From Torpedo marmorata (lineage: Eukaryota), in NCBI GenBank assembly GCA_977017645.1, contig OZ360239.1, forward strand, positions 44,702,001 to 44,766,000: DNA of 64,000 bases. Reading direction: 5' to 3'. Every line of letters starts with the position of its first letter. Within the stretch, counting starts at the first letter, position 1. Both the position numbers and the translations under genes were made by a program. The notes beneath the pieces are model-generated. The model searched no databases and was not told the origin of the DNA. It was given only the letters and a program-made list of their open reading frames with translations. Shown in pieces: positions 5,048 to 63,589 of the stretch.

Positions 5048-5270
5048 ACACAAGAGACTGCAGATGCTGGAATCTGGAGCAAAAAAAAACAAACCGCTGG
5101 AAGAACTCAGCAGGTCCTGACAGCATCTATGGAGGTAGAGTGATTGTCAAGATTTTATGCTGAGACCTTAAATCCTGATGCAATGGTCTTGAGCTGAAAT
5201 TTCGACTATCCTTCTGCCTCCACAGCTGCTTCCTGGCTCGTTGAGTTCTTCCAGCAGTTTGTTTTATTGC
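5048..5270. mobile_element. Short non-autonomous Penelope-like element formed by inverted pseudo-LTR arms
   Basis: gctggaagaactcagc...gttgagttcttccagc inverted arms; resembles the terminal part of the Penelope fragment at 18282-18430; degenerate CTGATG...GAAA core at 5175-5199. Confidence 0.7.
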
Positions 5271-11904: not shown

Positions 11905-12910
11905 TAAATAGCTATCAAATTCTTAAAGGACTTAAGAGGCTGGATGAAAGGGAAGATGTTTCCCTGAGCTGAAGAGACTAGAGCCAGGTGCATTCAGAAT
12001 GGAAATGAAGAAGCCTTTCTTCATGCAGAGGGTAGTGAATCTTTGGAATTCTCTACCCGATACACCCTTGGAAGCTCAATAATGATGTTCATTCAAAATA
12101 GAGATGGATAGATTTCTGGGCTTTAAGGGAATCAGGAGAGATGGGAACAATGCTGGAAAATGGGGCTCAGGTAGAAGATTAATGATGAGATTTCAGATTT
12201 ATTGTCAGAGTACATACATGACGTCACATACAACCCTGAGATTTGTTTTCCTGCGGGCGCGGCAGAATTACCACTAATTGGTAGTGCAAAAAGTAAACTG
12301 TACACAGCGTAAACATGTAAACAATCAAAAGAACTGCTAACAGGTAACGAATGAAACTGAAAATGAAAATGAAACTGACTGCAATACAGAGAGAGCAAAT
12401 AAAAATCAATAAAGTGCATGAGTAAGAGTCCTTAAATGAGTCTCTGATTTGACTTTGTCGTTGAGGATTCTGATGGTAGAGGGGTAGCAGCTGTTCCTAA
12501 ACCTGGTGGTGCAAGTCTTGTGGCACCTATACCTCTTTCCTGATGGCAGCAGCGAGAACAGAGTATGTGCTGGGTGGTGTGGGTCTTTGATGATTGCTGC
12601 TGCCCTTCGACAGCAGCATTCCCTGTAAATGTTCTCGATAGTGGGTAGGGATTTGCCTGTGATGTCCTGAGCCCACTACCTTTTGCAGAGCTTTACGCTC
12701 AGGGGTATTGGTGTCCCCACACCAGACCGTGATGCAGTTGGTCAGCACACTTTCCACCACACATCTGTAGAAATTTGCCAGGGTTTCTGGTGTCATACCA
12801 AACCTCTGCAAACTCCTGAGGAAGTAGAGGTGCTGACGTGCTTTCTTCACGATGAACGGTGGAATAGGCTCAAAGGGCCATAAAGCCTGCTCCCATTCCA
12901 ATTTCTTACG
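11905..12910 (+). mobile_element. CR1 LINE 3' end remnant, split by the Rex1/Babar-like insertion at about 12186-12850
   Basis: gagggtagtgaatctttggaattctctacc and ggctcaaagggcc...tttcttacgttctta match the 3' end of the CR1 copy at 30149-30500. Confidence 0.7.
12186..12850 (-). mobile_element. Rex1/Babar-like (L2-group) LINE, 5'-truncated 3' fragment
   Basis: ORF 12527..12901 contains KKARQHLYFLRSLQRFG...FYRCVVESVLT; 3' tail tgacaataaatctgaaatc; same family as 63590-64000. Confidence 0.85.
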
Positions 12911-15889
12911 TTCTTATTTCAATACCATCGTCTTGTCAATGAAAACATCATTTCCATTTTCCTTCCTTTTCTCTGAAATTTATGCAGGATATCAAACAAA
13001 AAGTAGATCTATCTTCCACTTCTCACATTATAATGACAAACAGCACTTTTCCACTCAATGCTAAGTTGAGACCAGTTTCTCTCCACGTCAGATACAATAA
13101 TACAGATTGAAAATTGAGCTTCACTAATTTAGTCAGTAATTCCATTGGTCATTTATTTGAGCTCTAATCTATTTCACACAGCTGCAACAAGATCATCACT
13201 CGCTATCTTCCCATGGCTTGCCCTGGGAATGGTGCCAAATTGCGCCTTTAATGGCAAATGAGATTGTGGTTCCAAATCACAAATGCTGGATTTGATATAC
13301 TTAGATCCAGTTCTCCAACAACAGTCCTTAATAATTAAAGGTAATGATCTATTTTAAGTTTGACTATTTTATTAATTTTCTGTGTATCATAGAGCATGCG
13401 TTTACATTGTACTTTCTGTTTCAAATGACAGGTTAAATAAAACCCTGAAGAGCATTCTATGTTTTTCTCTTTGTCCAAAATATCAATTGTAATTGACTTC
13501 TAGATTATGGATCAAGTGTTTCTTCTCCATTCAACATGATGCTATTAATGAACTCAAGACAAGATAAGTCAAAGAAGACCTAATATGGTCAAATTTAATA
13601 AATTATTTCTAGTCCTGTGCCCACATGGAGGCCATTGGATAATCTGTGTTTCCATCAGTTTTACCCTTGAGCAGAAATTTTCTCACCAGAACCACGGCGA
13701 ACTGGCACAGCTCTGCAAAAACATATTGTAGGCAGGTTGGAAATTCTCCAGAGGAATCCGAAGTGCTAACCATTTGATCTGTTAGCAAAAAGTAATTAGC
13801 AATTTTTACAAAAAGCAATAAAAAATAACACATTTGTCCCACCTTCTTAATAAGTTTTTCCAGTTCATTTATATTCGCAAAACTCTAAAAATCCTAGAAC
13901 TCTGCAAAATTTAGACGAAAATTGATTAGTACTTACTGCAGTCATTTATTTAAGCATTTTAAAATCACATTTTATGCTTAGAACAGAGATTATATTGTGT
14001 AAGTAAGATAGGAGATTATCAGGTGGTCTAAACTCAAATATTGTGAAGGTCACAGGGGTCATGCCCATCCACCAAAATAAGAGATAATTTTGTCTTTTTA
14101 ACTCAATTCCCTTCAGGAAAGAGCTAATTAATGAGTCATTTTTCAATCAAGAAAAATCTCTGCTTTTGATGAATGGGGTTTGAGATTTGATTAAATATTT
14201 GGGACAGAAGGCGAATAAAATCTGTATTTCCTTAATTCACTTCTAATTCAGCTATCAGATACTTTTTTTCTTCATAATGAATCACTGTTATATTATTTTA
14301 ACCTTGGAAAATTAGTATAAATTAATCATACCAAAAACAGTTTTGCCATAATATTACACAGTTTACAAAGTTGTTCTGGAAGATTTTAAATTGACTATGC
14401 AATCAAACACAGTAGCAGTGTCTGTGTCAAAGTGCAAGTCAATATCTTAGTTAGAAGTTGTCTAATAGAAATGAATAACAGCAGCTGAAGCTAAGGGAAA
14501 CACACTTGAAGCAGAGGATCTGGCTTGTGTTCCAAGCAATTAAAGTCTGGTGAATCAATGGGGAGAAAGCAAGGCAAGATTTTATTTAGTGTGGTCATGG
14601 CTCATAAAGTCAACCTGTTGAAGGGCAGAGAAATGGAGATACTTGGGGTAGTAGGCAATAAAAGCCCATTTTATTTTGTCTGGATTCCTTCAGATGGAGG
14701 AAGAACTGAAGCTGGAGAGTTACAGAAGTGACCCCCACTAGTCCTAACATTTAGAGCAGATAATGTTCAATTCCCTGCAGCGTCTACATCTGATAACCCA
14801 ATTATCCCCAATCTATTTTTCACAGCCTTTTTGCAGCTCTCTGCTTACAAACAAATGCATTAGTTTTTGCAGAATGGTGGTCTCAATTATTCTGACTATT
14901 CTTAACATTGCTATCATTTGGCAAAACAAAAGAGTACTGAACATTAAATAAATCATTTTCAGCATACCTACTGCCTACTTAACCAATGCATGCTTATAGT
15001 AAAATTCTACTCCCGCTTCACTACTATTTAAAATATCTAAGATATTTGTAATATGAATATCTTGAAACAGAAAAGCTTGTTCCACTTATTTTTAAGTTTC
15101 TAATTAAGGGGCCATTTATAGCCATTATGTTATGTGAGACGAACAGTGGTTAGGAATTTCTAATTCAGACTTGTTGATAGCTATCAAATCCCAAGCAGAT
15201 AATTACATTTACATTATACACTTAGCCATCCAATCATAAAGCATCAGGGGTTTAATCTGAACAGGAAGGATGCTGGAGAAAATGGACAACAGCCTGAGTA
15301 CATCACCTTCCAGGGGTCCTGCGAGTTAATAGTGGAAATTAATCCATCACATAAAAATAGGGAACAGAAGGTGAGCAGAAAGAAACAACTAATAAAGCAA
15401 AGTTTAACTTCCTGGCTCATAGGTTCAGCCACAGTTCTCTAAACAGACTATGCCCCTCAAAACTACAAATCAAAATCACATCAAACTTGTTGATCCATAG
15501 TTGATCTTCCTACTATTTCATAACTGCCATGAAATAATGCTGCATTTATGTTTCAAGTTGGATTTGCTCTGGTCTGGCAGAACTGTAGTATCAAAATCAA
15601 GCCATACATGCATTCAAGGTAGATGAGTGCAGTGATATGTCATCATGCCAGTGATTCACATCAATTCCTTTCTGTAGGTAGTGCATTTTAAAATCTTGAA
15701 ATTGGATCACAGGGCTCCCTTAGCCATTACAGAAACACACAAAATATTTCTGATATACACAAACAGAGTTATATATATTGTATACATACCGGTATATAAT
15801 CTATTAATGCATTTATTTTAGCCATGTTTACCCATTTTCCTTGAAGTAGTAACTTATCCTAGGATGTTGTTCCATCAACTTGTATCTGA

Positions 15890-16190: not shown

Positions 16191-16940
16191 TCTGGTACTT
16201 ACTGAATCAAGCTTAATGTTTGAACATAGACAGGGAATGTCAAGAGATTATTTCACTGTGGGATGCCAGAGTCAGGTTCAATTCTATCATCTTCTAGTAA
16301 TGAATTTTGAACATTTTCCAACACTGGAACTGGAAAGGGAGAAGGAGCTGTGAATCAATGATTTCTTTGCTATCCCACTGGTACGGAGGTAAATTGTTGT
16401 GTTCCTGATTAAGGTCACATACCAAGAATTCACTCAGGGACATATTCAATATGGAACATGGATTTCTCATTAACCATCAGTTTTACTTGATATTAATGTA
16501 ATTATGATGTAATTTGCAAATAACAAAAAGGTTTTGCTGCTGCATTTGTCACTCTCTCCCAGAAAAAAAAATCATGCTGACATAATCATTCTCTGACATT
16601 ATCAATGTTATTTTTGGAATATTGGGAGTTTCCCTGTTTTTCAGTAACAACTGCCTCATTTATACATACTGATTGAACAGTTTTGAACCCATTTCATTTG
16701 GACACAGTTATACTGATGTGCATTTGTATCTAGAGACCAACAATCCCAGACTTACACCAGCATTGTATCTTTAGGTGACTCACCAGATCACCTGAGGTTA
16801 GGGAGAGGTCTTTCTTGGTAGGTTCCCATCCTATTAGAGTACATTAAGAAAGACTGCATGTTATATGAGGGAGGATATGATAGGATATGATTGTGGCATA
16901 AGCAGCCTTCAACCTTTCTAAAAAAATAACTTTTTTTATT

Positions 16941-17982
16941 CCTCTTTCTTTTGTGCCACATTTATTAAACTAATCAATCTAGCAATATTACCCTTTGAAT
17001 ATCTATTCTTAATAAAACCTACTTGATCTGCAAGAATTAAATCTGGTAAATATTTTGCCACTCTATTTGCTAAAATTTTCACCATTATCTTATAATCCAC
17101 ATTTAACAATGAAATTGGTCTATATGATTCTGTTTTCAACAAATCTCTATCTTTTTTAGGTATAACTGTTATTATTGCATTTGAAAATGTTTCCGGTAGA
17201 GAATGAGATTCCATTATTTGTTTTAACACCTCCATATATGGAGGTATCAATAAATCCTTAAATTCCTTATAAAATTCTGATGGGAAACCATCCTCCCCTG
17301 GAGACTTTCCACTTGTTAAAGAACTAAGAGCATCATTAACTTCTCTCATCGTAAATGATGCATCTAAATTTTTTTTACTTTGGGTATTTAATCTAGGTAA
17401 CTTAATTTTAGATAAAAATTCATTAATTTTAGAATCATCTTTATCGGTTTGAGATTTATATAAATTTAAATAAAATTCCTTAAATGAATCATTTATTTCT
17501 CGAGGTTTATATGTTATTTTCTTTGAATTCTTTTTTATAGCACTTATAGTTCTAGAAATTTGTTCTTTCTTTAATTGCCACGCTAACACTTTATGAGCTC
17601 TTTCTCCCAGTTCATAATATCTTTGCTTAGTTCTTTCAATTAATTTTTCCATTTTATATTTTGCAACGTATTATAATGCAATTTTTTTCAATTAAATTTT
17701 TTCTCTTTTCTTCTGTTCCCTTTTCTTGCAAATGTTTCTCCAAAAACTCAATTCCTGAATATATTCCTTCTTAACTTTTGCTGAATAACTAATTATTTGA
17801 CCTCTTAAATAAGCCTTTAAAGCGTCCCAAATAATAAATTTATTATTAGTCGAATTAGAATTAATCTGTAAAAATTCTTGAATTTCTCTTATATAATTAC
17901 AAAAATCCATTCTTTTCAATAAATAAGAATTAAATCTCCATCTATATATCATTTTTTATTTTTCTGGAATTATACATGACAT
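16941..17982 (-). mobile_element. L1/Tx1-clade LINE ORF2 fragment (post-endonuclease linker to RT N-terminus)
   Basis: ORFs 17692..17952 (WRFNS...WDALKAYLRGQII) and 16936..17652 (KSPGEDGFPSEFYK, YRPISLLNVDYKI, DQVGFIKNR). Confidence 0.93.
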
Positions 17983-18281: not shown

Positions 18282-18876
18282 AGTAAAACACGAAAATCTG
18301 TAGACACCGTGGTTGAAGTAAAAAACACAAATGCTGGAGAAACTCAGCAGGTCAAACAGTGTCTTTTATGTAGCAAAGGTAGAAATACATAACCGACGTT
18401 TCGGGCTTGAGCCCTTCATCAAAGTATGAGAAAATGCCGGCAGGCGTCTGACCAAAAGAGTGAGGGGGGAAGGGGGGGGTGGCAAAGGCAGGAGATGATA
18501 GGTGGAAAAAGGAGGGAGGGGACAGCAGCAAAGAGGGGGAGGAGGGATGGCTGGGTGGGTGGAAAAAAACAGGAAGGACAGGTGAGGGGGGAGGGGAAGG
18601 AAACGACAAGCAGGTTTAGTGGAAAGCAGAAAAGTCAATGTTAATGCCATCTGGCTGGATAGTGCCCAGACGGAAAATGAGATGTTGTTCCTCCAACTTG
18701 CGGGTAGTCTGGGTGGGATAGTACATAAGGCCATGGACAGACATGTGAGTGTGGGAGTGTGACCCGGAATTGAAATGGTTGGCTACTGGGAGGTCGCTGT
18801 TGTTGTGGACGGAGAGGAGGTGCTCAGCAAAGCGACCTCCCAATCTATGACCGGTCTCTCCGATGTAGAGAAAGCC
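18282..18876 (-). mobile_element. Penelope-like retroelement 3' fragment (GIY-YIG endonuclease C-part plus pseudo-LTR), nested in the L1
   Basis: Minus translation LYIGETG.RLGGRFAEHL...PVANHFN...KLEEQHLIFRLGTIQPDGIN; flanked by a 12-bp direct repeat acatattacaaa (18270-18281 and 18877-18888). Confidence 0.9.
18388..18429 (-). ncRNA. Minimal hammerhead ribozyme motif in the Penelope pseudo-LTR
   Basis: Minus strand: CATACT-TTGATGA-A-GGGC-TCAA-GCCC-GAAA-C-GTC-GGTTATG, i.e. the core boxes around a 4-bp stem II, with C3U. Minimal hammerheads are established features of Penelope-like elements. Confidence 0.65.
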
Positions 18877-20177
18877 ACATATTACAAATGTGGAAGGGGG
18901 AACCAGTTGGTCAGATGGAGAGAGACTTATTAAATATTAGAAATGGTGGATAGTAAATCAATAAATGTAGTTAGTATCAATATAAATGAACTAAAAAATC
19001 CGAATAAAAGGAAGAAAACTTTAGCATATATTAAAAAATTAAAAGTTGATATAGCTTTTTTTTTTACAAGAGACACATTTGACAGAAATAGAACATCAGA
19101 AGTTGAAAAGAGAATGGGTTGGTCAAGTGGTAGCGTCTTCATTAAATTCTAAAGCCAAAGGAGTTGCTATATTAATTAATAAAAAGTTACCTTTTAAAAT
19201 GCAATCTGTGGTTATAGATGTTGCAGGAAGATTTGTCTTAATAAATTGTCAAATATATTCAGAAATGTGGACACTTATGAATATATATATGTGACAAATA
19301 TGGAAGATGAACAATTTATTCAAGATTCTTTTATGCACTTGTCAGAAGCAAATGATAATAATTTAATTGGTGGAGATTTTAATTGTTGTTTAGATCCAAT
19401 AATGGATAAATCACCGCAATCAATTATCAGAACTAAAACTGCTAAAATAATTCTTACTTTGATGAAGGATTTGAATTTAATAAATATTTGGAGGAAGTTG
19501 AATCCAAAAGAAAAAGACTATTCCTTTTATTCTTTTAGACATGATTCTTATTCTTGAATACACGTTTTTATTGTCATCACAATTAGAAGAGAGGGTGACT
19601 CAAGCGCAATATAAAGCGAGAATAATTTCTGATCATTCACCTCTTTTAATAACTTTTTTATTGATTAAGGTCTCCATTACAGTTGTGACCCCTCCAAGTT
19701 GACACACAAATGCCTCTGTGAGACATTTATTAGGTATTCCTGCAGTGAGTCAACACCACATTTCTACTTCCACTTTGGCTGTTGTATGTGGGTAAAAGCA
19801 TCACACCCACCATCCAAATTACTACTTGACCTTATTGACATAGTTTTATGAGTAATGGACCACGCTGCCCACCAATAATGTCTGGTCTTGTGCATATTGT
19901 GTGCATGAGCTACCTTGCAGAAGTCATTCAATCCTCACTTGCAAGCTCTGAACAATGCAGGGTTGCACATATAAGATATATAGATAAAAGATGGCCAGAA
20001 CAATCCCTCTCCCAGAAATGCTGAAAAAAATTATAGGTAGCTTAGCCACGCACTTCCAACTATACGGGGAAGGGTAAATCTGATAGAAGCTTCAAATGTT
20101 AATGAATATCTTGTTAAAAATTCATCAAGAATGAAAAAAAATAATGTTTGTTACATGTTATAAACCAAAATTGCAGT

Positions 20178-24158: not shown

Positions 24159-24531
24159 CTTAGGCAATTTAAGTGAATGGACAATGGCATGGCACATAGA
24201 ATATGATGTGGAAGAATGGAAGGCCATCCATTTTAGCAGAAGAAATAGAAAAGTGAGGAATTTTAAAAATAATGATCGAAAGGTTTAGAGGATCCTTGTA
24301 TTAATTGTACATTAATTGCCAGATTAACATGAAAACAGCAAGAAATTAGGAAGATAAATATTTAATGGCCTATATTGCCAAAGGATTTGAGCACAAAAAT
24401 AAAGATGTCTTGCTCCAATTGTATGGGGGCCTGCCAAAACGACATCTGAAATATTGTATCGAGGTCTGGTCTCCCTACCCAAGGAAGCAAATACAGTTAA
24501 GTGTGGGAGCGCAACAAAGGTTCACCAGATT

Positions 24532-25328
24532 AGCCCCTTTCACACCGCCAACCCTCCTAGGAAGTGGGTAAACTTACTGGGCATGCAGTAGCCGGTAAGC
24601 CTTTCACACTGGAGCCTAAATTACCTGGTAAATGCGTAACTCGCGAATCTAAGGGGGGCCCAACCTCCAGCCATAACGTCACGAGTGACGTGTTACGTAC
24701 TCGTAGGGCAGTGAAATCGTAGCGGGAATAAAGCACATATGCGCTCAATGTATAAACGACTGTGGGAAAATCTACCGCAGTGGGTTTCAGACTGTTCAAA
24801 CTTAGGACAAACCCACAGACCAGCTTGTCATTATTCCCTAAACAATAGAGTATAACAACTATTTACATAGCATTACATTGTATTAGGTATTATAAGTAAT
24901 CTTGAGATGATTTAAAGCACAGGTACGCGCTGACAGCTCCACCGGCCGCGCTCTGATAGCTCCACCGGCCGCCCTGTGAAATATTACTGTGCAGTTATAT
25001 TTCACAGGACAGCCGGTGGAGCTGTCAGTGCGTACCTGTGCTTCAAATCATCTCAAGATTACTTATAATACTACCAGACTGACGGACGCACGCAGGAACT
25101 AACGTCACTAATGGTACCTGGTAGAGCAGGTTGCGCATTCACACCGCCAGAGAGTGATTAACGAGTTAACTCGGCCGGGCTCTGACTCTTCCCCCCACCA
25201 AGAGTCAGAGCCTGGTTGATTTTTACTCGCCCTGCCCGGTTGGGACCTTTCCCACCGCGCGATTACCCGGTACGGACCCGCTACATTGGCCGGTTCAACC
25301 CACTTTATTTGGCGGTGTGAAAGGGGCT
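24532..25328. mobile_element. Non-autonomous PIF/Harbinger-type DNA transposon (797 bp)
   Basis: Perfect 20-bp TIRs agcccctttcacaccgccaa / ttggcggtgtgaaaggggct; 3-bp TSD ATT (24529-24531, 25329-25331); removing it restores CR1 ttcaccagATTgattcctgg. Confidence 0.9.
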
Positions 25329-40200: not shown

Positions 40201-43041
40201 CAGTTACTACTAGTAAAGATGCCAACTTGCTATTTGACTGCACGGGTGCCACTGGGAACATTGTGCAGTGTCTCCTATCCGTACTGTATTGTGAACCCAT
40301 TTAATGTATCCCAGCACAGCTACCACAGCTTTCACTACAGCATTGCTGTGCTCTGTTGTGATTGTAATATAATCCTGCCTCCTCTTGTCTTCCTCAACAA
40401 TCAGTCTTTTCAATTTTCAACAGTTGGACATTGCATCCATCTACATTGAACCCACACAGGGAAGGAAAAGGCAGGAGGATGTACCTTTCCAGGAATTTCC
40501 GCAGTTAGCAATAAAATACACTACACTAGCTCGGAAGAATTATTTTAGCACAGATTATGTTCTAATTTAAACAGCATTCACAGCATCCTGTAATCATTTA
40601 AGCCCATCAGAACGTATCAGCGAAATAGGATTTATATCTTTAGATTTGTGTGTTATAGACAATGGGTATTCCTAATAAGAAACATGTTTTTTTTGTTTTC
40701 CCAGAAAACATTATTTTACTATGAAAATGATATTCTCATCCTGCTCAGTGGTATAACAAAGCCTGTCTGTTATTTCATCCCTCTCACTACACCACCATCC
40801 CCACTACCACTATCACCCCCATCCCTCCAACTCCCTAAAACCCTGCTCCCCTGAATACAGTTAAGTCAAAAGATTTTCCTCCAAACAGTTTATTTGCAGT
40901 AAGCTGCTTTTTTTTCCCACCTAGCGATGGACAATGGTTTTGATTTACGGAACACTGCTTGGACCCGAGCTGGAACAAATGTGTGGTCATAGATCTCAAT
41001 TCAAGATTGAATTATTGGTTCATATCCTGAGGACAAATATGCCTTATCTGTTCAGAACCTGCTAAATGTGTCCGAGGGCAAAAAGGAACTGGTAGAGCGT
41101 GCTCTCTGTGATTCCTTTTAGAACCAACTAGCCAAGTGATGAGATTGCTCACCAGGGGACTCTAAGCCATACAACAAAACAAGGGGGAAAAAAACTCTGC
41201 AAATGCAGTTTCTCACTTCAACTTTGTTTTGATGTCTGTGCAGACTTGGGAGCCCATATCTCCATGTAGATCTAAACGCTTAACTTTAGCGCTTTTTCAA
41301 TACATGTCAAGGCTATAAACTTTTCTGCCTTTCCTTCTAACTATTCACTCTTGCTTCTTTATTTTCTAGAAAGGATCTGAGCTTTGCATGTCTGGTTAAA
41401 TGCCTTTTCTGTATCTTCATAGCACTTAGTAAATGGTGCAACATGAAGTTTTTTTGAATTCCTACATTTGCAATTGCTTTAAGTATTTCAAATAAATTTA
41501 GAAGAATGAAGCAGATTTCTCATACATAATATAGTTTCAATAGTTTCACTGTTATACCAAACACTACACAGCACTTATTCTTCAAACATTAATGTGTTTT
41601 GCTGTAGTTTTGTTAGTCACTAAACATAACTATTTTATGAAGAACTATGTGATGATGTTAAAACTAAGGGGGGGGGGCTGATATAGTCATGTATATTTTC
41701 CATTGAACATTTTATATTTTAAAATTACTGGTCTTCAAATGTTTTCAAATAAAATGTTCTGGTTATATAAGTGGAACTGCCCTATAAATTGCATAAAGTA
41801 ATATATTATTTGTATTATTTATTTAATGTTTACATTTGAATCCATTGTATGAGAATCACTATTTCACCTTTCTCCACTATAAACTAGTTTTTCACATTAA
41901 TCTTACTGCAGGTTATAATGCCATCACTATTGATAACACAATAAATGTGCAATATTAATGTGTCTTTAAATTACATCATAATATCAGCTCAATACAAAAT
42001 GTTCAATAGCCACTGTAATGAAATAGCATAATAACCTGAGTCATAAATGCAAAATCATTTTTATAACATCTGCCAGACAATAGGAATGAAGAAGGCCAAT
42101 GATAGTGAAGAATATTAAGCAAATATTCAGTGCATTTATTTGCAATATTCACCTAATAAAATAAAAATGTCGTGTATTATAATTGCACTCTATGTAGAAA
42201 TTCTACTTTGAGTCCATTAGGACAGAAACACTAAAGATAAATATAATTGTATTGATTTTTTAACACCAAGTTCTTCAAACTGTTGAACCTGCCTTCAATT
42301 GCCTGACACAATCCCAGAGTGATGGCAACAACTGGTCTGCCCTATTTGATTACTAATAAGAAAGATGTCCCCTCTGTCAGATAGCTAACATTCTCCACTA
42401 AGCAAACAGCTATTCCAGCTAATCAAACATTGGCACTGCTCTCCACTGGTGGTGCATATTTTGTCAGGCTTAACTTAGGGTCTTTCCTGGTTTAATTTTC
42501 AGACATTGAAACCAAAGTTCATGATCAGAAGATATGTCAGTAATGAAAGTGGCTGAAGCCAGAGCTTTGTTCGAAATCTACCAAGGAGTTGAGTTACCAT
42601 GCCTATACTTTGCAGTAACTTTCAACATGTGACAGCAGCTATGTTACGTATACAAATTTAATGGCACAAGGCTTTCAGTAAGGTATATTTCTTTCTAACA
42701 AAAGAGAACAACATGTAACTAATAAACAAATGGCAACTAAAAGTAACACAAAACACCCGTGAGTTACTAAGAAACAGATTAGAGCACATAACTGCATTTA
42801 AAGCCAAAAACTCTCTAGGCATAAAATACTCTTCACAGTGAGCATGGTGGCAGATGAAACTGCTTCCCTTGACAACTCACAAGCAATTACTGAATCCCCA
42901 CAGAGTGAGCCACCAGGTTTCCAAGTCAACCCACCTGTGATGGTAACACAAAAGGACAACAAACGGAACAATGCACAGAATGAACTGAAAGCAAGACTGA
43001 GGGTAATGGGCATCAAAGAATAAAAATTAATACATTCATAC

Positions 43042-43110
43042 CTGTCAATAATCACAGGATCTGAGGGAGTTTCATTTCTGTTGCCGCAACTTTTCTTGTC
43101 ACAACACCGG
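43042..43110 (-). CDS. EBF3: EBF3 exon 6 (69 bp): (S)[22 protein letters not shown](R), second half of the zinc knuckle
   Basis: Lies inside ORF 42798..43199; ctacAG acceptor, GTATG donor; completes the H-x3-C-x2-C-x5-C COE motif. Confidence 0.97.
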
Positions 43111-43538
43111 CTGTAGGTAAAAGAAATAACCATAAGTATGTTTTCAAAGTGATCAGCATCCTCCCTCCCTACCCCAAACTTCAACTTTGATGCAATCATG
43201 GCCAGTGAACAAGCATCATAATGGGAATGTTAAAAGATTGAAAAAACAACATGTTGTGGTGTCTGTCTTTACGTTGATCTCAGAAAAGAAAGAAGCAGGA
43301 GGCTGGGGAATAGGTTTTCACAGCTTCCGCTTTTGTTTACCTCTAATTGTCAAGCTGTTATTTCTGGAGAAGATGCAAGATGCCACCTTCAACCAACATT
43401 TCTGTGGGGCATTTATTAATTGGAACCATACCAGTCAGTATGCCCCTTTTGTGAGTTTAAAAAATTCCTTTGTTAAACATAGGTTTCAGAAATGTAATTG
43501 AAATTTGAATATAACAAATATAATACATAATTATATCT

Positions 43539-43678
43539 NNNNNNNNNNNNNNNNNNNNNNNNNNNNNNNNNNNNNNNNNNNNNNNNNNNNNNNNNNNNNN
43601 NNNNNNNNNNNNNNNNNNNNNNNNNNNNNNNNNNNNNNNNNNNNNNNNNNNNNNNNNNNNNNNNNNNNNNNNNNNNNN
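43539..43678. other. Assembly gap or masked run (140 N) in EBF3 intron 5
   Basis: Run of N. Confidence 0.99.
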
Positions 43679-44710
43679 TCACATCTGTGCTCTCTTCTAT
43701 GTTAATTGCAATACATGCAGTGGTGGATAATAAAGAAATTTCACTTTATTGGTTGTAATTTATATTTATTACCCAGTATAGGGAAAACTCTGCTTTTGTA
43801 TATTAGCACTGTTACAGTATGTTTTAAGTGAAATGACATTAAGCAATAAGCATAATAGCTAGGAATAGTATGCCCCTTAGAGTATGATACCTGCTACTGT
43901 AGTCTGAAATTCTGGCTGCACTTCCTGAACAGCCCTGCTCTAACAAGCAACTATATTTCACATTCAATACATACAAAATCAATGATGTATTTTTTATTTC
44001 CCTTGCAGTGTGAAACTCTTATGGCACTTAGAAAAAAACAGGTGGGAAATTGCTCTTCTGACACAAATCCTGGTGATGTGCATGTTATCTAACAACAGTA
44101 TGAACAATGCATCACTGCTCTAGAGAAAAGGTTAACTGACAGTATCAAAATCAATTCTCACATACATGAGCTCAATAAGTACAAAGAGTTTCTTTTTTTA
44201 TCAATAACAGATTATGGTTTATCTGTGGCTCAACCTAGTATGAACAATAAAATAACTGAATGATCAGGAACTCCTATGGAATCACTCGCGTGTTCATAAA
44301 CTATGACCTGTTTTGGTTGTTCTCTTAAAAGTGCATTGCAATCGCAAGAGCAATATATTAATCCGATGCAATGAACAACATGTTGGATTGCAAACTTCTC
44401 AACGTTCCAAGCCAAAGCAATTACGAAGAGTTCCAACGTCGGCAATAAAACATATTGTACGATTATTGAAACTTAACTTTTGTTTTAAAATGCCGCCCCT
44501 CTTTTCATTTCTACTGTTGAGAAATGTCTTACTTAGCACCAAAGCAGCACTTCAATTCAATCGCCGGCATGCAAAAAAAAGTTTTAAGATGTTGTAAGAA
44601 AGTGGTGATTTCGCCTCGCGTACCATGGGCATTGAAACTGTATAGCGGAGAATAAATCGTGTGCAACTTTGTACATTGACAAAGCACCTTCTGCGCCACA
44701 AGTAGCTTAC

Positions 44711-44784
44711 CTGCACATAATTTCGTGTGTAAGTAGGACTCTGCACATTTCGGGGTTTTTGTCTTGGCCTTCGTATATAATCGG
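44711..44784 (-). CDS. EBF3: EBF3 exon 5 (74 bp): PIIYEGQDKNPEMCRVLLTHEIMC(S), first half of the COE zinc knuckle
   Basis: Manual translation; ttttAG acceptor, GTAAGC donor. Confidence 0.96.
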
Positions 44785-47237
44785 CTAAAATAATTATTTA
44801 AAGAAACAATAATCAGCGTTTTGACATTGGAAAGTTTCCTTTAACAGTGACTAAAAGTCGCTATACCTGGATATGCAGGAACACTGGCCATTTAAAAAAT
44901 AAGAACACAATAGTTTTCGGATCATCTGCAACATCCCTTTCCTTGCTCTGTGCATTAAACTAATGCGCACAGGTTGAGAAAGAACAGTGAAAACGGAAAA
45001 GGCCCAAAACTGAGATTTCTGGCGGCCCGAGAGCCTGAAGCTCATGGTCACGTTTAAATCAGTTAGAAGCTGTCCTTTAACAAGGTGAGAAGTGCCTGCC
45101 ATTCCCGGGTATTAATTACATGTCATGTTGAATTTTGATGGTCTATTTTATGAGAGGGGGGCAAGGATACGACCTGGGCGTCAGCTCGACAGAAACGTTC
45201 ATTGGTAAATACTGCATTTGCCTCGCACTAACCCCACTGTTGTACATGTTTGGGGAAGGGGAGAGAGTCGTCATTTATTTTGTGAGGGCGACACAGGAAT
45301 TTTTGGAGGAAAGCAATGTTGTGTCTTAGTTTGTCGTTTGACTTTCCCTCCCACCCTCATCCCCACCCCAAAAAATACGCTCAGTTTTTTTTCCATGCGA
45401 TTTAGCCTGTGGAGTGAATCTGGTATTTATTTTTCAATTACACACAATGATTTTTTTCTCTAAAAAGACAGTCTGTGAGTACGGTTGAGTAATTATTGAG
45501 CATTCGTTCTAACAGCAGCCAGATGGTGGGAGCTCTAGGTGTGTTCCCCTTCTCCTCGCTCGCCTTTCAGCCAGTCTTCTCCAGCGAGCAGTGCGCACAA
45601 ACGCACCACTCTCCTTTACGACTCAGCTGAGCGCATCGGATCCCAGTTCCAAGCTGTCTGTCCCCTTATTATTCATCTAACGAGATTCGCTTTGCTCGCA
45701 TTGTAACAAGCAGCACTCCCCAAGTCCAGATGCTTATTTTCTGATTGTTGTCACTAAAATAAAACATGACTAAGTTGGGAATGCTATTGTTTCCTCTCCC
45801 AATCGCCATTCCTGCGCGCTTTTTTTTTTTGTTTCGCGTTCCTGTTTTCATTTTGCTTCAGAAATTCTAACCAGTAAATTAGTTGCTCTGCGCCGTTGAC
45901 TCTTTGATCAGTTACATTGCTGTTTTCCATCAATCAAGTGAGATTAGCGTTTTTACAAAGCCTCGTTTGCATCATTAAAATAGTAAGATGCGTGACTCCG
46001 TGAGAAGATATCTCTTAAAATAACAGCCCCTTCACACCAAGCCCTTTAGAAGCAGGATATACACCCTCCTAATTAAGGTACGGCGATCTCGGCAACCATG
46101 TACCTTACAGATAAAATGGCAATAAACATAGAGGGTTTTTTTTACCTATTGAAATTACTGTAGCAAGTGGGAAATAACACTGGGGTTCCTCATGACCAAT
46201 GTCAATCCCGTGCTAGATTCAAGTCTTTAATTCCAAAACTAGATATCTATGAATTATATTATGATCAGTGCGGGGCTGCTTAACACGGTTCATTCTTTCC
46301 CAACTAGCAAAATCACTGCGTAATCACAAACTTAATTAGGAAATTTGAATGATGAGAAGCAGATCTGATTCCATGAGATGAATGTATGGCACGCAACGTG
46401 TACCATTGCCCAAAAAGTGCAAAACTGAACAAGCAAAAATAACGGTTGTCAGCGGATGGAAGACTGAGCAAGTCATTTGGGCAATTTATTAAATGTTGTT
46501 CTTTATTTATAGTGCCTTTGTGACAATAAAATTACACTGTAATGTAAAACAAAGTGTATTGGGGAGATGGTGAAATATTTGGCGACTTTCAATTGGAAAT
46601 GTAAACGAGCCGACTCCCGTGGCTAATTACTGTGCAGCACTTTTGATCAACCGCACTTATCATCTTTGAAGTTGCAGAAGACAGGCTAAATAATTTAATA
46701 AGCAACTGCCTGTAATTATGTTATTTACAAGGTATGACAGACAGATGATAAAGAAATACAGCTGATCTCAGGGAATGGGTTGCTTCGTGACCCCTGGCGC
46801 ACACACTCAAAGCTACAGCTCCTGGGCAGGAATAAAAAAGTGGAGCTGAATTATGGAGAATGGGCTGAGAGGTGAATTGGAACTGGGAGAGGACAAGCTA
46901 ACTTTTCACCTGAACGCATTTAACTCCGCACACAAATGGAGACGCCAATTGCCAGACCATCCAGCTCTATAATAACCAAATCGCGCCCTTCTTCACATCG
47001 TGCGAATTTAACCCTGAAAAATTTGAGGTACACATGCATAGTAAAACTTAGCTAAACCCAAACAAATTGAGTTTGAGTTCAAGAGAGGAAATTCATTTAA
47101 CATGCTGCAAATGGCAAAAAGTGTGTCTTTCTACTAAAACGCGTGGAATTTTATACACTTTGGGATCTGATGTTGAAGGAATAAATCGACTGTAAACATT
47201 ATAATGCAAAAATTAAAGTTTTTTTTTACAGGCTCAC

Positions 47238-47293
47238 CTGTTTGGTCATTGAATCGATGAGTCTGACGTAGAGATCTTGTTCTGTTCGCACCC
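47238..47293 (-). CDS. EBF3: EBF3 exon 4 (56 bp): (G)VRTEQDLYVRLIDSMTKQ
   Basis: Manual translation; ttccAG acceptor, GTGAG donor. Confidence 0.96.
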
Positions 47294-48184
47294 CTGGAAA
47301 TAAAGTAGTATCAAATTTAACGGCACTTAAAAAGGGAAACGTGCGCTGTCAATGGATGAATCGTCTTGAGATCCAAATCATTCAAAAACAGAAAGGCAAG
47401 TTTGCATACTACATCGCACTGTTAAAGGACACTATTAATTTGGAAAAATATGGAAGCTGGTGTCCTTGTAATGAATGCAATAAAACGAGCTGATAGGCGA
47501 TAAAACGCGAATAAAATATTCGTCAGAGAAATATAAACTGTATCCCAGGAAATTCATGAATTCTTGACATTTATTGTAAATTTTATGTTGAGTTGAAATG
47601 TGCAATTTGCAGGGCCATGGAGCATGGAGCATGGAGCGCTGGTCTTTTTTTGTCCCAATACTTGTATATTTTCTTTTTGGACAACTATTCAAATTAACTC
47701 AAACGATGACAACTAATGTCACGAATATATTTAATGGTTTGGTTATGATACTCAAATCTGGAATTCATTGTCAAGCCCAGAGCACTGTTTAAATATTTTG
47801 GGTGCACAATTTTACTTTAAAGATTTGTTTTACTGCCTGCGTTTGACTTTTACAACATTGGACAATATGCTGCCCCACAAGATCACCATGCAACAACGCC
47901 ACAAGGACAAAAAAATAATAATAATAAATTACATTAAATCCAAACGAAGACCAAGCATCAAGAGGTGGGAACAACATCATGTTCACTTTCAAAGCTAGAT
48001 GCCCGATAAATCAGGAGAAGCGACATTGAAATTCTAATCTTTTTATTTTCTTTTTACACTTAATTGCTAGCAAGGTTGAACTTCAAAATTATAAAAACAG
48101 CGACTTACGTCGACACCTCATGACTCCTATCCAACCCTATTAAAATAGAAAAAGAAAACCGGTGTACCCCTGTGGATCAATTCA

Positions 48185-48286
<102 letters not shown>

Positions 48287-48606
48287 TTATATTGTTCAAG
48301 GTATTCCATAGTTTATTTTTCATGTCTCTTTCAATATATGTGTTGATAATTAACAGCTTGCCAGGTCAGTCCCTGGCTTGTTAAGTATGCGGCGAGTCCT
48401 TGCATTCGAGCAATAGGAAACATTTTGCTTATAGGCTTTTGTAAAAAAAATAATATTTACACACAATGTCATAAATAGGCAGCTATTTTTTTTCTTCTCA
48501 GCAGCCGAGAGCTGTTATAACAAGCAGAACTACACGTGGTTTGGACGCCTCCTGAGTACCGTTAGGCTTGTTAGTTATTGTGCACTTAAAGAGAAAATCA
48601 TTTCTA

Positions 48607-49041
<435 letters not shown>

Positions 49042-49050
49042 TTATGCCTA

Positions 49051-49960
<910 letters not shown>

Positions 49961-52900
49961 TTGTTATTAACATAATGAATCCTTTAGGAAAAAATATACG
50001 GCGAACGTGAATTGTTTGTTTTCAAACAAAAAAATAAAGGGGCAAATTGTTACTTTAAACACAAACTGAAGTGGAGAACACTGTCAGATCAATACGTGTA
50101 GCAGGAACTTGCGGCTGAAGTTTGTATTTAAACTTATAAAATAGCGTGTGGCAAATGTTCCTTGGCCTTGACTACAAATGGTTGATCACTGCAATATTTT
50201 GCTAGAAAATTAAGAAAATCCTGTATGGAACCCACGGGACAAATTAATCACAAGCCTGAATTCTGTGTGTGTCTGCGTATAAATGTGTTATATGTGTGCA
50301 CGTTTGTGTGTGTTGGGGAGAGGGGTGTCTTTATTTTGTTTAACCTACGTAGTTGTCAAACACTGTGTTTTCTTTATATAGTTTGTTGTGTACAAAATGC
50401 TGTATTACATTTTTGCTGCTATCTATGTGATCGCGTAATCAATTATGAGTAAAAGATCTAGACATGTCCACTGAATCAATATCCAAATTGTGAGGTACAT
50501 TTAATGCTTTCAACACAAGGGCTGCATAGCTGCTGTGAATCAGCACGACGATTTGAAGTTAGATGATATGTAGATGTGCGATAACCAGGAATTCCTGAAG
50601 ATCCACATGTATTTCTAAGTAGATTTTTTGTTGACTAAAACTAGCCTTTCAGAGATATTAGCTCGTGCCCAGAGGAGGGGGCCCTCGGGACGGAGGCTGC
50701 CCTGTGCTTTTTTTAAAAACTAAAGGTAGGAGCCCTGGCTGGTGGGAGAGAATCAGGGACAGTCACTTACTCAATGATCAGCTCCTTCTCTTCGTTCGTA
50801 TTAGCACTGCCATCCTTTATTTGACAATTGGCACCGTACGTACGCTAATATTTTAATTAATCGGTGAAAATCGAAGTCCGAATTCTGTTATCAGGGGACA
50901 CCATAACACTAGAATTTCAATAGTCCGCTGAGGGTGAGAAAGAGATGTGTTAGAGCAATCTATTTTCTGGTGTTGGGGGTTAATGACTATTGTGACAGAT
51001 AAGTGAATTATCAAAGCTGTTGCTATTCCGATTTCAAAATCCATTACATTGCTGGCGTCTAATTAAATACGTAAGTATAATAAAATCATATTTTATGGCG
51101 ATTGAAAGTAATAAGATTAGTCTTCAGAAGCAATCATCACATATTAAGATGCCATATAGATCTACAGAATCCGAAGACTGTACTTTAAAATCAAAATGTG
51201 CTGGAAACAACATGCACAATAAGCAAAATATTTTGTGAGCGGTAGGAATCAGTGATATATCGAACAGGTATATCTATATTATTAACAACATTATTACATT
51301 TCAACTGAAAATAAATATAAGCTACAGCAAAGTTAAAAAAATCTTCTCGTTTAAGCGTAATATTTGAAACCTGTGAAGAGTTTAAGCGTATTTTAATTCT
51401 GCGAGTCACTTGTTAATACATGTATGCAAAGCTCCGTTATAGTAAACATGCATTAGTAATTCATGAGTGTGTAGCAATGGAAATAAAAATGGGTAATTTT
51501 AGCATTAACTAGTCGAAGTGAACACATTTTATCAATCATTTATATATTTTAAAATATATTTAAAGTGTTTTCCTTCAAATCTGATAAATGTGTTTTGCAC
51601 CAAGTCACTTACAGTGTTCTCATACCAGATTACACCCGCCGAGGCGATTTAAATCTGATTACCAAATTATAGGGTTTTAGCCAAATCCTTTTAAAGATGA
51701 CTGTAAAATGCAACCTGAAAAGTTCCGCAAAACCGTCACAGAGGCTTCATCCGTGCTGTAGCCAAAGAGTTTTAAAACGTATTGGACAACAAATGCAGCT
51801 GCACTGCTATTTTTTTGAAGATATTAGGCGAAAATTAATGCAAATCTGTGTTCAGAAGCCATCTGGCCAGAATAGGGGAATCAGCTGTTCCTCACAACAG
51901 GGTTTGGGCTGAATATATTCCGCTCATTTTCTATTCTCATCTGGTCTGGACAACGACTGCTCCAGACGATAGCGTGGAAAATACAACCTTTATCACCCAC
52001 TCCAAATATACCGTTTTGACAAACTGTTTGCAACAACCCAAATTTAATCGAGGGGAAATGTGACGACTCCGTATTGACACAACAATTTACCGCTGCCATT
52101 TCTTGTAGGGGCAGGGTCGCACAAAAGCGGTTCAAACTTCATCTCCTCAATATAAAGTGACTGGCGTTCAAACACACAACTTTCCCGTGGTTTGAAGGCG
52201 TTTTCAGTTTTTTTTTCCAGGTACCCTTTGTTCCTATGGATGAAAATGTTAATAACACACCCGCCTGACTATCACCTTTAGGCATCAACACTTATACACA
52301 GCTCCATCCCAAAAGAAGCGAGGTTGTCGAACGATCTATTCGGCTGAAAAAAAGTGAACCCGCGGAAGACATTTAAATAATTTACTACAATGGGGTAGGA
52401 CAATGAGATAGAGAGTTTTATGGACTGTTTGTTGTCAAATATTGTTTGAATTATCTGCTTTAAAAATCATATTGGGAAGTCGGGACAGTTGTGTGGTTAA
52501 ATCGAGGCGATTCAGCTCGATTCTTAGTTTGAGGAATGAGCTAACAGTCACTGTTGGACAAAGAAAGAGAGGCAGAAGCTTGCGGGATTGGATCGGATTT
52601 GCATGGTCCAGTCATAGACCTCCCGAAGTAACGATCCTCCTTATTATGTGAAGTGTTCCTTTTGTAAATTTACGGTGAGGGTTGAATGATACACAGAATT
52701 TGCATATAAATAGCGACATCAAGCGATTCGCGTGCCACACACCAGTGGTCTCCCAGATGTCAAGCCAAAGTCAGTCAGATGGACATTGGCAGTCCCAAGT
52801 CCCCCGCGCCAGCTGTCCTCTCCCCGCCGTCATACCAGAGCACACGGAAAAATCACAATCGCCAACCAAAGACGCTGCTTTTCACCAAATCTCTGCCTTT

Positions 52901-55900
52901 GCCTTTTTGCTTTAACCCTCAACCCCGTTTTACAAACGCTCTTTTTTTATGTGGACACCTGACGCCTTTGTTCAATTTTAATGGCATGGTTTTAGATATT
53001 ACCCCCCTCCCCTCCCCCATTTCCTAAAAAAAGTAGACGTCTTCCAAATCATTGCTACTGAGCTAATTGTTGGTCTCTTTTAAAAAATGTATATTTCTGG
53101 CTGACTTTTAAAACAAAACACTTGAACTACTCAACCGCTCGCGGGCGCTCAGGGCTATTTAGCGCACAAATAACGGCAGTTTTCAAATAAAGGTAACAAA
53201 ATCGTAGTGCGCCTAAACTTGCGGTGAACATTACACAAAGGGCTACAATGTAAACTCGCATGGTACAGCGCGAGGTGAGAACGGTAGGGGAAGCGTGGCA
53301 CTTCGAGTATTGGGGTCATTTCCGCAGCATGTAACATACATTCAATTGCGAACCAGTCTAATTGTTTATCGCGTTTCTCGATCCAGTTAGGCACTTTTAA
53401 TTGATTGCAATCTATTTCCCAACTTACACAAAAATAAGCAAATAGCTAAACCCGCGTCATATTTTTGTTCAAAGAAACGGTACAACGGTCATTCGGGGAC
53501 GTCTAACGCATAAAAAAAAAACACAAATTAATTGATCGATTAAAATGGTTTGTCCCTTCTTTGCAATCTAGCTTTCACAGAGATGTTATGCCAGAACTTA
53601 AATGAAAATAGCCAAATTCATAAATGTTCTCCGCACTACTATATTACAAGGCGAGATGTGATTTTTTGGAGAGGTGCTTAGTTGAATTTTAAGGTTTTTT
53701 TCCCCTCAGGAAAATATATTCTATTAAGCGCCTTGCAGAGATTCAGCAGAAAGCCTTGATCCCTGTTTTCGCGTTGCAACCTGTAAGGTGCACATTTGAC
53801 AAATAGCGCCGCCTCGGGAGGCCCAGAGACTCGGCTTTGGGATCAATCTTGCCTCCATCAACAGCTCGCCAACATCGCGAATGTGGAAAGGAGCCCGTTG
53901 ATCACACTAAGATTTCCGTACCAACTTTTTCCCACAACTAAGAAACCTTTAGACGCACACTAGATACATCACATTGCCGCGCTTACCTTTCGGCCCCGAC
54001 TGCCTGCAACTTTCGAGCTTTCAATTTTTACGCCGCGCATTAATTAATATCCAGACCGTCAACTTTTTTTTGTGAACAGAAATAAATAAACCGACTGCAC
54101 CTTTCTAAATATTTCTCCGAACATGCTGTAAAGTTTCATCACTGGACTTACTACGGCGTGGGTATCAATTCGTATGTGGCAATGATTTAGAAACGCGTGA
54201 GACCACGATTTGTCGACAATATGCAACTTTTCACCACTTTTCGCCTGAGAGGTAAATAACACACAACCACTTTTATTTTATAAAGCAGACCGTGATTGGA
54301 AAAGTGAGGTAGATCTTTAAACCGAAGACATTGGGGTCATATTTTGTGCAACTCGCAACGAGAGATAGAAACAAAACGTATAAAGGTCCTCATTGTAAAC
54401 GGGGCATCACCTCACGGCCGAGAGAGCCGCTGAAATACCTCCTTACGAGGTTACACCTGGACTGGCGTACTGGCGTATTCTTTGGTCACACGAAACTAGA
54501 AACTTTCTATATCGGGACATAACTCAAACTTAATCACCGAAGTGCGCAAGTTATCGAGCCATTCCGACAGAAATATATTTTGGGGGAAGTTGGGGGCAGG
54601 GGAGGGGGGAGAGAAACATTACGCATCTAGGTTAAGAATATCAAATAAACGGCCGGTCTGGATAACATTTAGTCAATTAAAACCACGGTGGGTTCATCAG
54701 TAAATCAGCCCAGTGTCCCAACTTTATTTTGTTCTTAACCTCAAGAAGTTGTGCAAACTCTAACTTCCCGATCTCAGAGGTGGAATTTTCACGAAGGATC
54801 GATTGCTTAATTTTAAATATTATAACACGCTTTGATGAAACACACTTCATTCTGATGTTTAACTAAATCTGATATTTTTTGTGTTGGTCATATTTAATTT
54901 AATATGTTCAATCCAGATGTCATTCCTAGGGTGAGATAGTCAGTGATGGAGTGAAGCTTCAGTTCAATTCATGGAGGGAAATTGTATAATACTGGCTGAG
55001 AACTTACTTTTGTATTGCAATTGGAGAAACAGATTCAAAGAAAACTATTTTTAAAATAGCCAAAACGTAATATATATATGTTCAAACTCTACCTTTTAAA
55101 ATCGGACACTTTAGACAATGAACAATATATACTGGGTATCAGTAGCGAAACTTTCAATCTACTGCTCTTTACAGTTTTATTTTCAGTATGAAAATATTCA
55201 AAGATAAAATTTAAAACCCCAATTTTAACACTGCGTATTCTAATCGCGTATCTCATGCCGTACAAGCACTGCGAAAAAAATAATTCCATTAAAAATTTGT
55301 ATATTTTCATACTAATAGAACTATTGATTGGAAAGCTGTTGCCAATTTACTTTTTGTAATGCCACGCCGCGATTTGCATTTATTCAACAGATCGTAATAA
55401 AGAAAGAAAGCTGGGCGGTTTGGCTGCCGAAAGCGTAGCTGGGGGGCAATGCAAGAACATAGATTGCTTCCAGTCAATTAATATGCAGTTTGTCCCAATA
55501 AAACAAGGAGTGGAAATAAAATAAGACACTGCGGGTTTCTCCACGATTAAGATTAGTCAATGAGATTTCCAAATTTGTTGTTAGGCATGAGATGCTCCTT
55601 TAACTGACAGTAATTTGTTAAACAACCAGAGATGCTCCCGCATACTTCAAACTGCCAAAAAGGTATTACCCTTGAACTAGATCTAAATTATTCAGCAGGG
55701 TAATTTACCTAAAGAAAACACGGACAAAGTTAAATACAATATTACATCCTGGGATGTATTTGCTTGCAAATCATTTGGAAGGAAGGAATACTATGAGTTA
55801 GAACAAAGTTTGATCCTAATACATTGGCTTAGTAAAATTAATTTGAAAAGAGGGGACCAATATTTGCTGTAGGAAATTGGATCGGAACATGAACGGTAAA

Positions 55901-60420: not shown

Positions 60421-61246
60421 ACATCTACAAGTTTGCCGATGTCGGCAGAATCACAAACGGCAATGAGGAAGCGTACAGGAGGGAGATAGATCAGCTCATT
60501 GAATGGTATAACGACAACAACCTTGCGCTCAACATCAGCAAATGATTGTGGACTTCAGGAGGAAGTCAGGGGAACACGACCCAGTCCTCATCGAGGGCTC
60601 AGTAGTGGAGAGGGTCAAGAACTTCAAATTCCTGGGTGTCAACATCTCTGAGGATCTGTCCTGGAGTCTCCACGTTGATGCAATCACAAAGAAGGCTTGC
60701 CAGCGGCTATACTTTGTGAAGTGTCTGCGGAGATTCGGTATGTCACCAAAGACTCTCGTAAACTTCTACAGGTGTACCGTGGAGAGCATTCTGGCTGGTT
60801 GCATCACTGCCTGGTATGGAGGCGCCAACTCTCAGGACAAGAATAAACTCCAAAGGGTTGTTAACTCGGCCTGTGACATCACAGGCACCAGACTTTACTC
60901 CATCGAGGACATCTACATGAGTCGGTGTCTTAAAAAAGTAGCCTCTATTCTAAAAGACCCCCACCACCCAGGCCATGCCCTCTTCACTCTGCTACCATTG
61001 GGAAAAAGGTACAGGAGCCTAAAGACGAGCACTCAACAGCACAAGGACAGCTTCTTCCCCGCTGCCACCAGATTCCTAAATAATCAATGAACAAAAGACA
61101 CTACCTTACTTTTCGTGCACTATTATTTATATATATTTTTATAGAAATGTCGTAAGATGGTTATAATATGAATGCTTGCACTATGATGCTGCCGCAAAAC
61201 ACCGAATTTCATGACATTCATGACAATAAATTCTGATTCTGATTCT
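60421..61246 (+). mobile_element. Rex1/Babar-like LINE 3' fragment
   Basis: IYKFAD near 60423; ORF 60542..61090 (MIVDFRR...FKFLGVNISEDLSW...DPHHPGHALF); tail gacaataaattctgattctgattct. Confidence 0.9.
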
Positions 61247-62604: not shown

Positions 62605-62845
62605 GTAAAGGTAAAGGTAAAGGTTCCATTATTGTCACGTAATACTACATTTAGAATGTAACATACATGAAATTCTTTAATTTTTGTCTACCGTAAGGCA
62701 GACAGAGGGTCGCTACTTTGTCCAGCACCCCTCACAGAAACCTACAGCACCTGGTGTTCCTTGGCGGTCTCCCCTCTAAGTACTGACCAGTCCTGTGCCT
62801 GCTTAGCTTCTGAGAATCAGACAATCCCAGTCGTATTGGTGCTGT
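62605..62845 (-). mobile_element. 5S-rRNA-derived SINE, copy 2
   Basis: Nearly identical to 29881-30122, with a short deletion near the 5' end and a longer (ACCTTT)n tail. Confidence 0.88.
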
Positions 62846-63589
62846 TCTTCTGCTATAAAAATAAAAATAAAAATGAGAATAACATATATTTAAATCACCT
62901 ATGAATAGTAAAACCAACATAACCTTTAATAGTACAGTTACTTATAATTACATTTTTCAGTTATGTAAATGTTTTATAATATTTAAATGTGTTGCTATTA
63001 AAGCAGTCATGACTATTTTTTAAAATTCACTCCTGTTCTCATTTTAACGTACCATTTTCTATAAAGTTGTTTAAACTTGCTTTGGAACCTTGGGTTGATA
63101 TATGCTGCATTTCATATCTGGTAAAGATCTACAGTGAAAAAAGCCTAGTAGTTGGTTGGAATTTTTTTTTTCATGTGGGTTATTTTCTTTCTTGCTCTTT
63201 CTTTGGAAAGAGCAAGAGAGAAAATTCCAGCATTTTAAACGAAGTGATTATTCACTCAGCAGGTGTTGGGTCAATAAGGGGGCCATTACATCTTATACAC
63301 AAAGCTGTTGGGCAAATGACCAAGTGAATTGTCTAATTCCCACAGCTGTTATGTGAATGAAACCACCCTCACTTTTATTTCCTAAACTGCAAAAACTCCT
63401 GAGAAATGCTGCTTACATAGCAACTAAATAAATAGTCCAATTTTCAGACCAGGGTTTTAACGTTTCTGTTGAGTGCTTAAAGCAGTTAAAGAATATTAAG
63501 TATTTTTGAATGGGGCGAGCTTTTGTATTTTTGCATTTAATATTTAAAAATACATGTCATAAATTGAAAAACAAAATGTAAGATCTTTA

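Follow-up and report, generated by a model that had tools for sequence, protein, structure and literature searches.

The window analysed here, a stretch of 64,000 nucleotides, carries coding exons 1 to 6 of EBF3 (COE3) on the minus strand and, downstream of exon 6 in the direction of transcription, a decayed LINE that is interrupted by a short DNA transposon. The features of the locus are the following.

43038..49185, minus strand: EBF3/COE3 coding exons 1-6 (Pfam COE1_DBD; tblastn)
24383..25433, plus strand: decayed host LINE into which the element is inserted; the coordinates are the outermost aligned flank positions, and the LINE continues to the left of them (second copy at 30514-30764)
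24529..24531, plus strand: target site duplication ATT, left copy, in the flank of the element
24532..25328, unstranded: non-autonomous DNA transposon (MITE) of 797 bp with Pangu/Harbinger2-type ends (pair of terminal inverted repeats, ATT duplication, gap-free empty site, CpG observed/expected ratio)
24532..24551, plus strand: left terminal inverted repeat (TIR), 20 bp, beginning AG, 20 of 20 positions complementary to the right end
25309..25328, minus strand: right TIR, 20 bp, complementary to the left TIR
25329..25331, plus strand: target site duplication ATT, right copy, in the flank of the element

The EBF3 exons were mapped by tblastn with 18 of the at least 120 listed proteins, and no exon after exon 6 was mapped within the window. 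The element, some 17.7 kb away from exon 6, is therefore likely to lie in the long intron that follows that exon, and for the same reason the length of this intron must be 43 kb or more. Upstream of EBF3, the region 51900-55400 is CpG-rich, as would be expected of a regulatory CpG island, which it likely is. Exon 2 is fully identical in at least 19 listed proteins (14 from sharks, skates or rays and 3 from teleosts); in two teleost proteins with full identity over exon 2, exon 1 is only 66-72% identical, and the gecko, snake and paddlefish proteins match exon 1 fully. EBF3 is thus too conserved to decide the host group alone. The reverse transcriptase of a LINE of the window gave at least 13 listed matches of 80% identity or more, and all six that were named are elasmobranch (81-85%); among the matches listed, those to Callorhinchus reached 60-65% and those to birds 49-61%. 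Taken together, the EBF3 exon matches and the LINE reverse transcriptase bear out the cartilaginous-fish host that the first-pass annotation had supposed, most likely an elasmobranch.

The LINE that flanks the element, presumably of CR1 type, is identical to its second copy at 30514-30764 in 169 of 254 positions, and the frame adjoining this second copy holds a reverse transcriptase domain. When the element and one ATT are deleted, the flanks align to the second copy with no gap at the junction, although this concerns one insertion only. With a GC content of 49.8% and 43 CpG, the element has a CpG observed/expected ratio of 0.87 (compare 0.25 and 0.18 for the two flanks), and its decay, as bounded by a computation from the intact TIRs, does not exceed about 7%; it is therefore much younger than the LINE that it interrupts. 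It occurs once within the window, which contains several other repeats. A 203-nt repeat, apparently a young unclassified element, is present at 29881-30113 and 62613-62846 in two copies that are 97% identical and 32.7 kb apart. A LINE 3' region is found in inverted copies (12291-12913 and 63630-64000; 60512-61090; 88-94%), and a frame related to these copies matches Pfam ALKBH8_N. Fragments of another LINE lie at 16936-17670 (minus strand) and 19198-19557 (plus strand); a reverse transcriptase was found in them, and their endonuclease sequence is one that we take to be L1/Tx1-like. Finally, inverted arms of 27 nt that are 132 nt apart and 93% identical occupy 5083-5268, and the repeat end found at 18320-18353 is related to them.

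The element has the marks of a MITE: it is short, it is bounded by TIRs and a target duplication, and it contains no frame of transposase length, the longest stop-free frame being 101 codons. An imperfect subterminal likeness continues the left TIR to about 65 nt. The inverted repeat also reaches one base outward, which would give a 799-bp element starting with TAG, but only a 1-bp duplication would then remain and these limits were rejected. As defined by Han et al. 2015 (PMC4482050), PIF/Harbinger elements make a 5'-TWA-3' duplication, and Pangu elements make a 5'-ANT-3' duplication and have TIRs of 11-40 bp starting with AG or GG; the Pangu_ADig family described there carries an ATT duplication. 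Pangu corresponds to Harbinger2 of Repbase, as given in PMC12730594. Because this one insertion has ATT on both sides and 20-bp TIRs that start with AG, its ends are Pangu-like by the published definitions. Canonical PIF/Harbinger MITEs have in common with it a 3-bp duplication and a short TIR beginning with A or G, but their duplication is TWA, and a canonical Harbinger was ruled out. Judged by the ends of one insertion, the carrier appears to be a young MITE of Pangu/Harbinger2 type, in the PHIS superfamily, and this assignment is well supported. It had previously been called a Harbinger-type MITE, which holds in so far as a PHIS-type MITE is meant but not for a canonical Harbinger, given that ATT and the AG ends fit Pangu/Harbinger2.

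The element differs from the described Pangu families in being non-autonomous, with no transposase to place it, and in its host, since the 34 families from 15 genomes tabulated in PMC4482050 have no vertebrate among their hosts; our literature search found no later report of Pangu/Harbinger2 in vertebrates. The TIR motif had no occurrence in the stored text of the three supplementary files of PMC4482050, one of them truncated; the table row examined there gives a TIR length and not letters. An exact scan with a 21-mer of the TIR found no locus in three collections of prokaryote or virus DNA. The full element likewise had no blastn match among plasmids; given the prokaryote or virus origin of all these sequences, neither result carries weight. 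The core motif of the TIR is repeated internally near both ends, at 24600-24609 and 25138-25149, and these repeats may be binding sites for the transposase or a partner.

Inside the element, an AT-rich piece and a large palindrome overlap.

24824..24917, minus strand: AT-rich, CpG-free piece, putatively an internal part of MER2/Tigger (composition; fitted borders 24830-24916)
24887..25071, unstranded: internal palindrome of 185 bp that extends across the junction at the right end of the AT-rich piece (81-nt arms, 6 mismatches)
24926..24971, plus strand: 23-nt unit duplicated in tandem, confined to the left arm (21 of 23 identical)
24985..24996, unstranded: centre of the palindrome, CAGTA/CAGTT around TG; possible decayed Tigger-type end and TA (base rate; post hoc)
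25041..25071, plus strand: the 31 bases that close the AT-rich piece, repeated in inverted orientation (30 of 31 identical)
25168..25222, unstranded: second, small internal hairpin with 23-nt arms (83%)

The 94 bases quoted in the first-pass annotation were recovered at 24824-24917, where it had placed them, and its description of an AT-rich island in a CpG-rich element was confirmed, as the piece has 25.5% GC and no CpG against the values given above for the element overall. When the element was shuffled 2000 times, a 94-mer of so low a GC content was obtained once. A two-changepoint fit that was blind to the earlier coordinates set the island at 24830-24916, borders that differ by 6 bases and 1 base from those of the first-pass annotation, and none of 100 shuffles reached it. 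The low GC, the absence of CpG, the rarity in shuffles and the sharp fit thus make the piece foreign-looking within the element. Composition cannot name the donor, however, because elsewhere in the window 4250 of 62160 94-mers (6.8%) are equally AT-rich; the piece itself has one copy in the window. A motif scan detected no TA-flanked Tigger-type end at its borders, meaning that it is not an intact nested Tigger insertion, a possibility ruled out by the lack of both TA and TIR. Borders without TA or TIR are what a copied internal fragment would have, and the piece is more likely to be one than to be a nested insertion.

We then considered the palindrome, which the first-pass annotation had overlooked. 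Five of the 6 mismatches between its arms are transitions, one 23-nt tandem unit being set aside, and each arm takes in the final 31 bases of the AT-rich piece together with its GC-rich neighbour. Since both arms carry the junction between the piece and this neighbour, the junction is older than the inverted duplication, and the capture of the AT-rich piece preceded that duplication. The 23-nt tandem unit, present in one arm only, likely arose after the inversion. The palindrome was also considered as a separate insertion with a duplication of its own, and this was rejected as its outer flanks show no duplication at all. Folded as RNA of the EBF3 sense strand, the palindrome core (24918-25040) has a computed energy of -91.8 kcal/mol (z of -13.8 versus shuffles); it would form a stable hairpin in EBF3 pre-mRNA and be a candidate substrate for editing or small-RNA production. 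None of the 6 Rfam matches attained the gathering threshold (the best had 37.1 of 70 bits) and none fell on the AT-rich piece. These sub-threshold matches are explained by the hairpins, and a microRNA gene was ruled out, all of them being below threshold.

As to the donor, the piece at 24824-24917 is putatively about 97% identical to an internal part of MER2, from which it would differ by a 1-base indel and some two substitutions. The first-pass annotation and the present analysis propose this match alike, but the second proposal is a lead of the same kind as the first and not independent evidence; the one check on it is that the proposed borders agree with the fitted ones. On that footing, homology of the piece to MER2 seems quite probable. 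MER2 is a non-autonomous element classed as Mariner in Repbase and listed without a named autonomous parent in PMC5753468, and according to PMC1914374 it was active around the divergence of the mammalian orders. The piece shares with MER2, a Mariner/Tigger element of placental mammals, the putative near identity over 94 internal bases; it differs in being only a fragment, whose borders have neither a TA duplication nor a TIR, and in residing in an elasmobranch. A 22-nt motif of the piece had no exact match in viral, metagenome and prokaryote genome contigs, and blastn of the piece against phages gave no match; as these collections consist of prokaryote and virus DNA, blank results in them carry no weight for vertebrates. 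Nor does any weight attach to the absence of the motif, on either strand, from the full texts of the papers searched. No paper describing MER2 from a cartilaginous fish was found in a search of the literature, most subscription papers and Repbase Reports lying outside its scope. The corresponding shark family may already be present in Repbase, in Dfam or in the supplements of PMC7070016.

Could such a likeness have been inherited vertically? Sharks and mammals are at least 0.2-0.4 substitutions per site apart at neutral sites. If an identity of 91 of 94 bases is assumed, neutral vertical descent would produce it with a chance of 2e-5 when the divergence is 0.2 substitutions per site and of 9e-12 when it is 0.4, both being assumed rates. 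Thus, if the putative identity of about 97% holds, vertical descent is excluded at these rates, and the piece would imply horizontal transfer, direct or via a shared third host and in either direction. The decay bound of about 7% is compatible with few differences from MER2. Exchange of this kind has precedents. Tigger is found in all vertebrate classes except Caudata, as stated by Gao et al. 2020, and Diaby et al. 2022 (PMC9219625) describe Tigger elements in 5 chondrichthyan species and claim transfers that join Eutheria with two sharks. The 4 mammal-shark pairs given there are all 0.65-0.70 apart, as distances between transposase coding sequences, and MER2 is not named in the main text. Those transfers concern the same family and the same pair of classes as ours, but they rest on coding distances and do not involve MER2, whereas here the identity would be one of about 97% in non-coding sequence. 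Mammal-shark transfer of Tigger has already been claimed in outline, and composite MITEs are known. In the screen of PMC7070016, alignments of at least 300 bp and coding regions were required, so that a 94-base non-coding piece would have escaped it.

On balance, and with moderate confidence, we favour the view that a Pangu/Harbinger2-type MITE took up, in a master copy, a piece of a MER2-related Tigger by template switching, and that the Tigger family concerned had been horizontally transferred. A Pangu/Harbinger2-type transposase likely moved the element. Excision of the master element would have left a break repaired by synthesis-dependent strand annealing, and a template switch during this gap repair likely copied in a short piece of a MER2-related Tigger. 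The capture would have occurred in the master element and not at the present locus. Further template switches may have produced the internal inversion and, later, the 23-nt tandem unit, after which the composite was probably mobilised in trans and inserted at an ATT of the LINE. Provided that the identity to MER2 holds, the arrival of the Tigger family in elasmobranchs or in mammals would be due to horizontal transfer, and the captured piece would be a neutral passenger, likely devoid of function. Switching of templates during gap repair is described in PMC3814204 as capturing outside sequence and making internal inversions in MITEs, and such repair would explain why, within 250 bases, a fragment that bears no insertion marks is found along with an inversion and a tandem unit. 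A comparable case is MER6 (PMC6887750), a composite MITE built from two families that holds a fish V-SINE and for which horizontal transfer is discussed. Both are MITEs that carry part of an unrelated element from a different class of vertebrates; MER6 is a Mariner MITE with a retrotransposed SINE, whereas the present element is a PHIS-type MITE with what is likely a DNA-transposon fragment, without insertion marks. Against this joint account, which we nevertheless rate as somewhat probable, stand the putative nature of the MER2 match, the frequency of equally AT-rich 94-mers in the window, the fact that no partner transposase was found, the lack of vertebrates among the surveyed Pangu hosts, the single copy in the window and the published mammal-shark Tigger distances of 0.65-0.70, which are nothing like an identity of 97%.

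The centre of the palindrome allows a different delimitation of the foreign sequence. Around a TG spacer at 24990-24991, one transition away from TA, both arms begin with CAGT, an arrangement found at 138 of 127022 positions (about 1 in 920); the island edge is 49 bases from this centre in both arms, and in Table S1 of PMC9219625 the TIRs of 4 of 5 chondrichthyan Tigger elements start with CAGTA and have TA duplications. The foreign unit might then be larger (24824-24989) and represent a Tigger-type end, the palindrome being two such ends head to head at a TA decayed to TG; the donor would be related to MER2 but differ from it in the terminal region, and horizontal transfer would still be implied. 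We hold this unlikely, since the centre was noticed post hoc and involves 4-6 letters, no TIR in the rows of Table S1 examined matches by eye beyond about 6 bases, the 49-base spacer is GC- and CpG-rich like the MITE (58.5% GC) and unlike the island, and a second Tigger end was not found. The CAGT/TG centre would be the sole hint of a Tigger in the sequence itself and, being post hoc, it is a weak one. The earlier statement that no Tigger TIR or TA is visible is thus accurate for the borders of the piece, but it passes over this possible decayed end 49 bases further on.

More doubtful still is that the piece is ordinary AT-rich host DNA that was captured, or a native AT-rich core, and that its likeness to MER2 is mistaken or partial. 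Equally AT-rich 94-mers are indeed frequent in the window (6.8%, see above), the borders bear no Tigger hallmark and no search, whether of the prokaryote and virus collections or of paper texts, returned a Tigger match; but the blank sequence searches were of prokaryote and virus DNA, a specific 94-base match was proposed twice, and its borders agree with those of the fit. We give very little credence to the piece being a travelling module that MER2 and the MITE each took from a third source, with no need of an elasmobranch Tigger. The uptake of a fish V-SINE by MER6 (PMC6887750) and the listing of MER2 without a named autonomous parent (PMC5753468) speak for it; the third source has not been seen, however, and near identity would still require a recent horizontal step. 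A chimeric assembly with mammalian contaminant DNA, conceivable in a draft whose window has 3 N runs, is extremely improbable, as the piece is enclosed by intact TIRs and a target duplication, 31 of its bases recur in inverted form with one difference and along with their neighbour, and the nearest N run is more than 18 kb away.

Returning to the capture of a MER2-related Tigger piece by the MITE, we tentatively extend it, as a possibility short of an even chance, to the history of the family: the Tigger family of MER2 may have crossed between elasmobranchs and early placental mammals, near-identical relatives, perhaps including the autonomous parent of MER2, may survive in sharks and rays, and one of its ends may have been swallowed and inverted in a vertebrate Pangu/Harbinger2 MITE. 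Transfers that involve mammals are rare; of the 975 vertebrate transfer events inferred in PMC7070016, less than 3% involve mammals and birds. If the carrier is correctly assigned, a family of Pangu/Harbinger2 type would be placed in a vertebrate. If the match to MER2 is true, an identity of 97% in non-coding sequence would be far stronger evidence for an exchange of Tigger between mammals and elasmobranchs than are the coding distances of 0.65-0.70 in the literature, and it would suggest where to look for the parent of a common human repeat.
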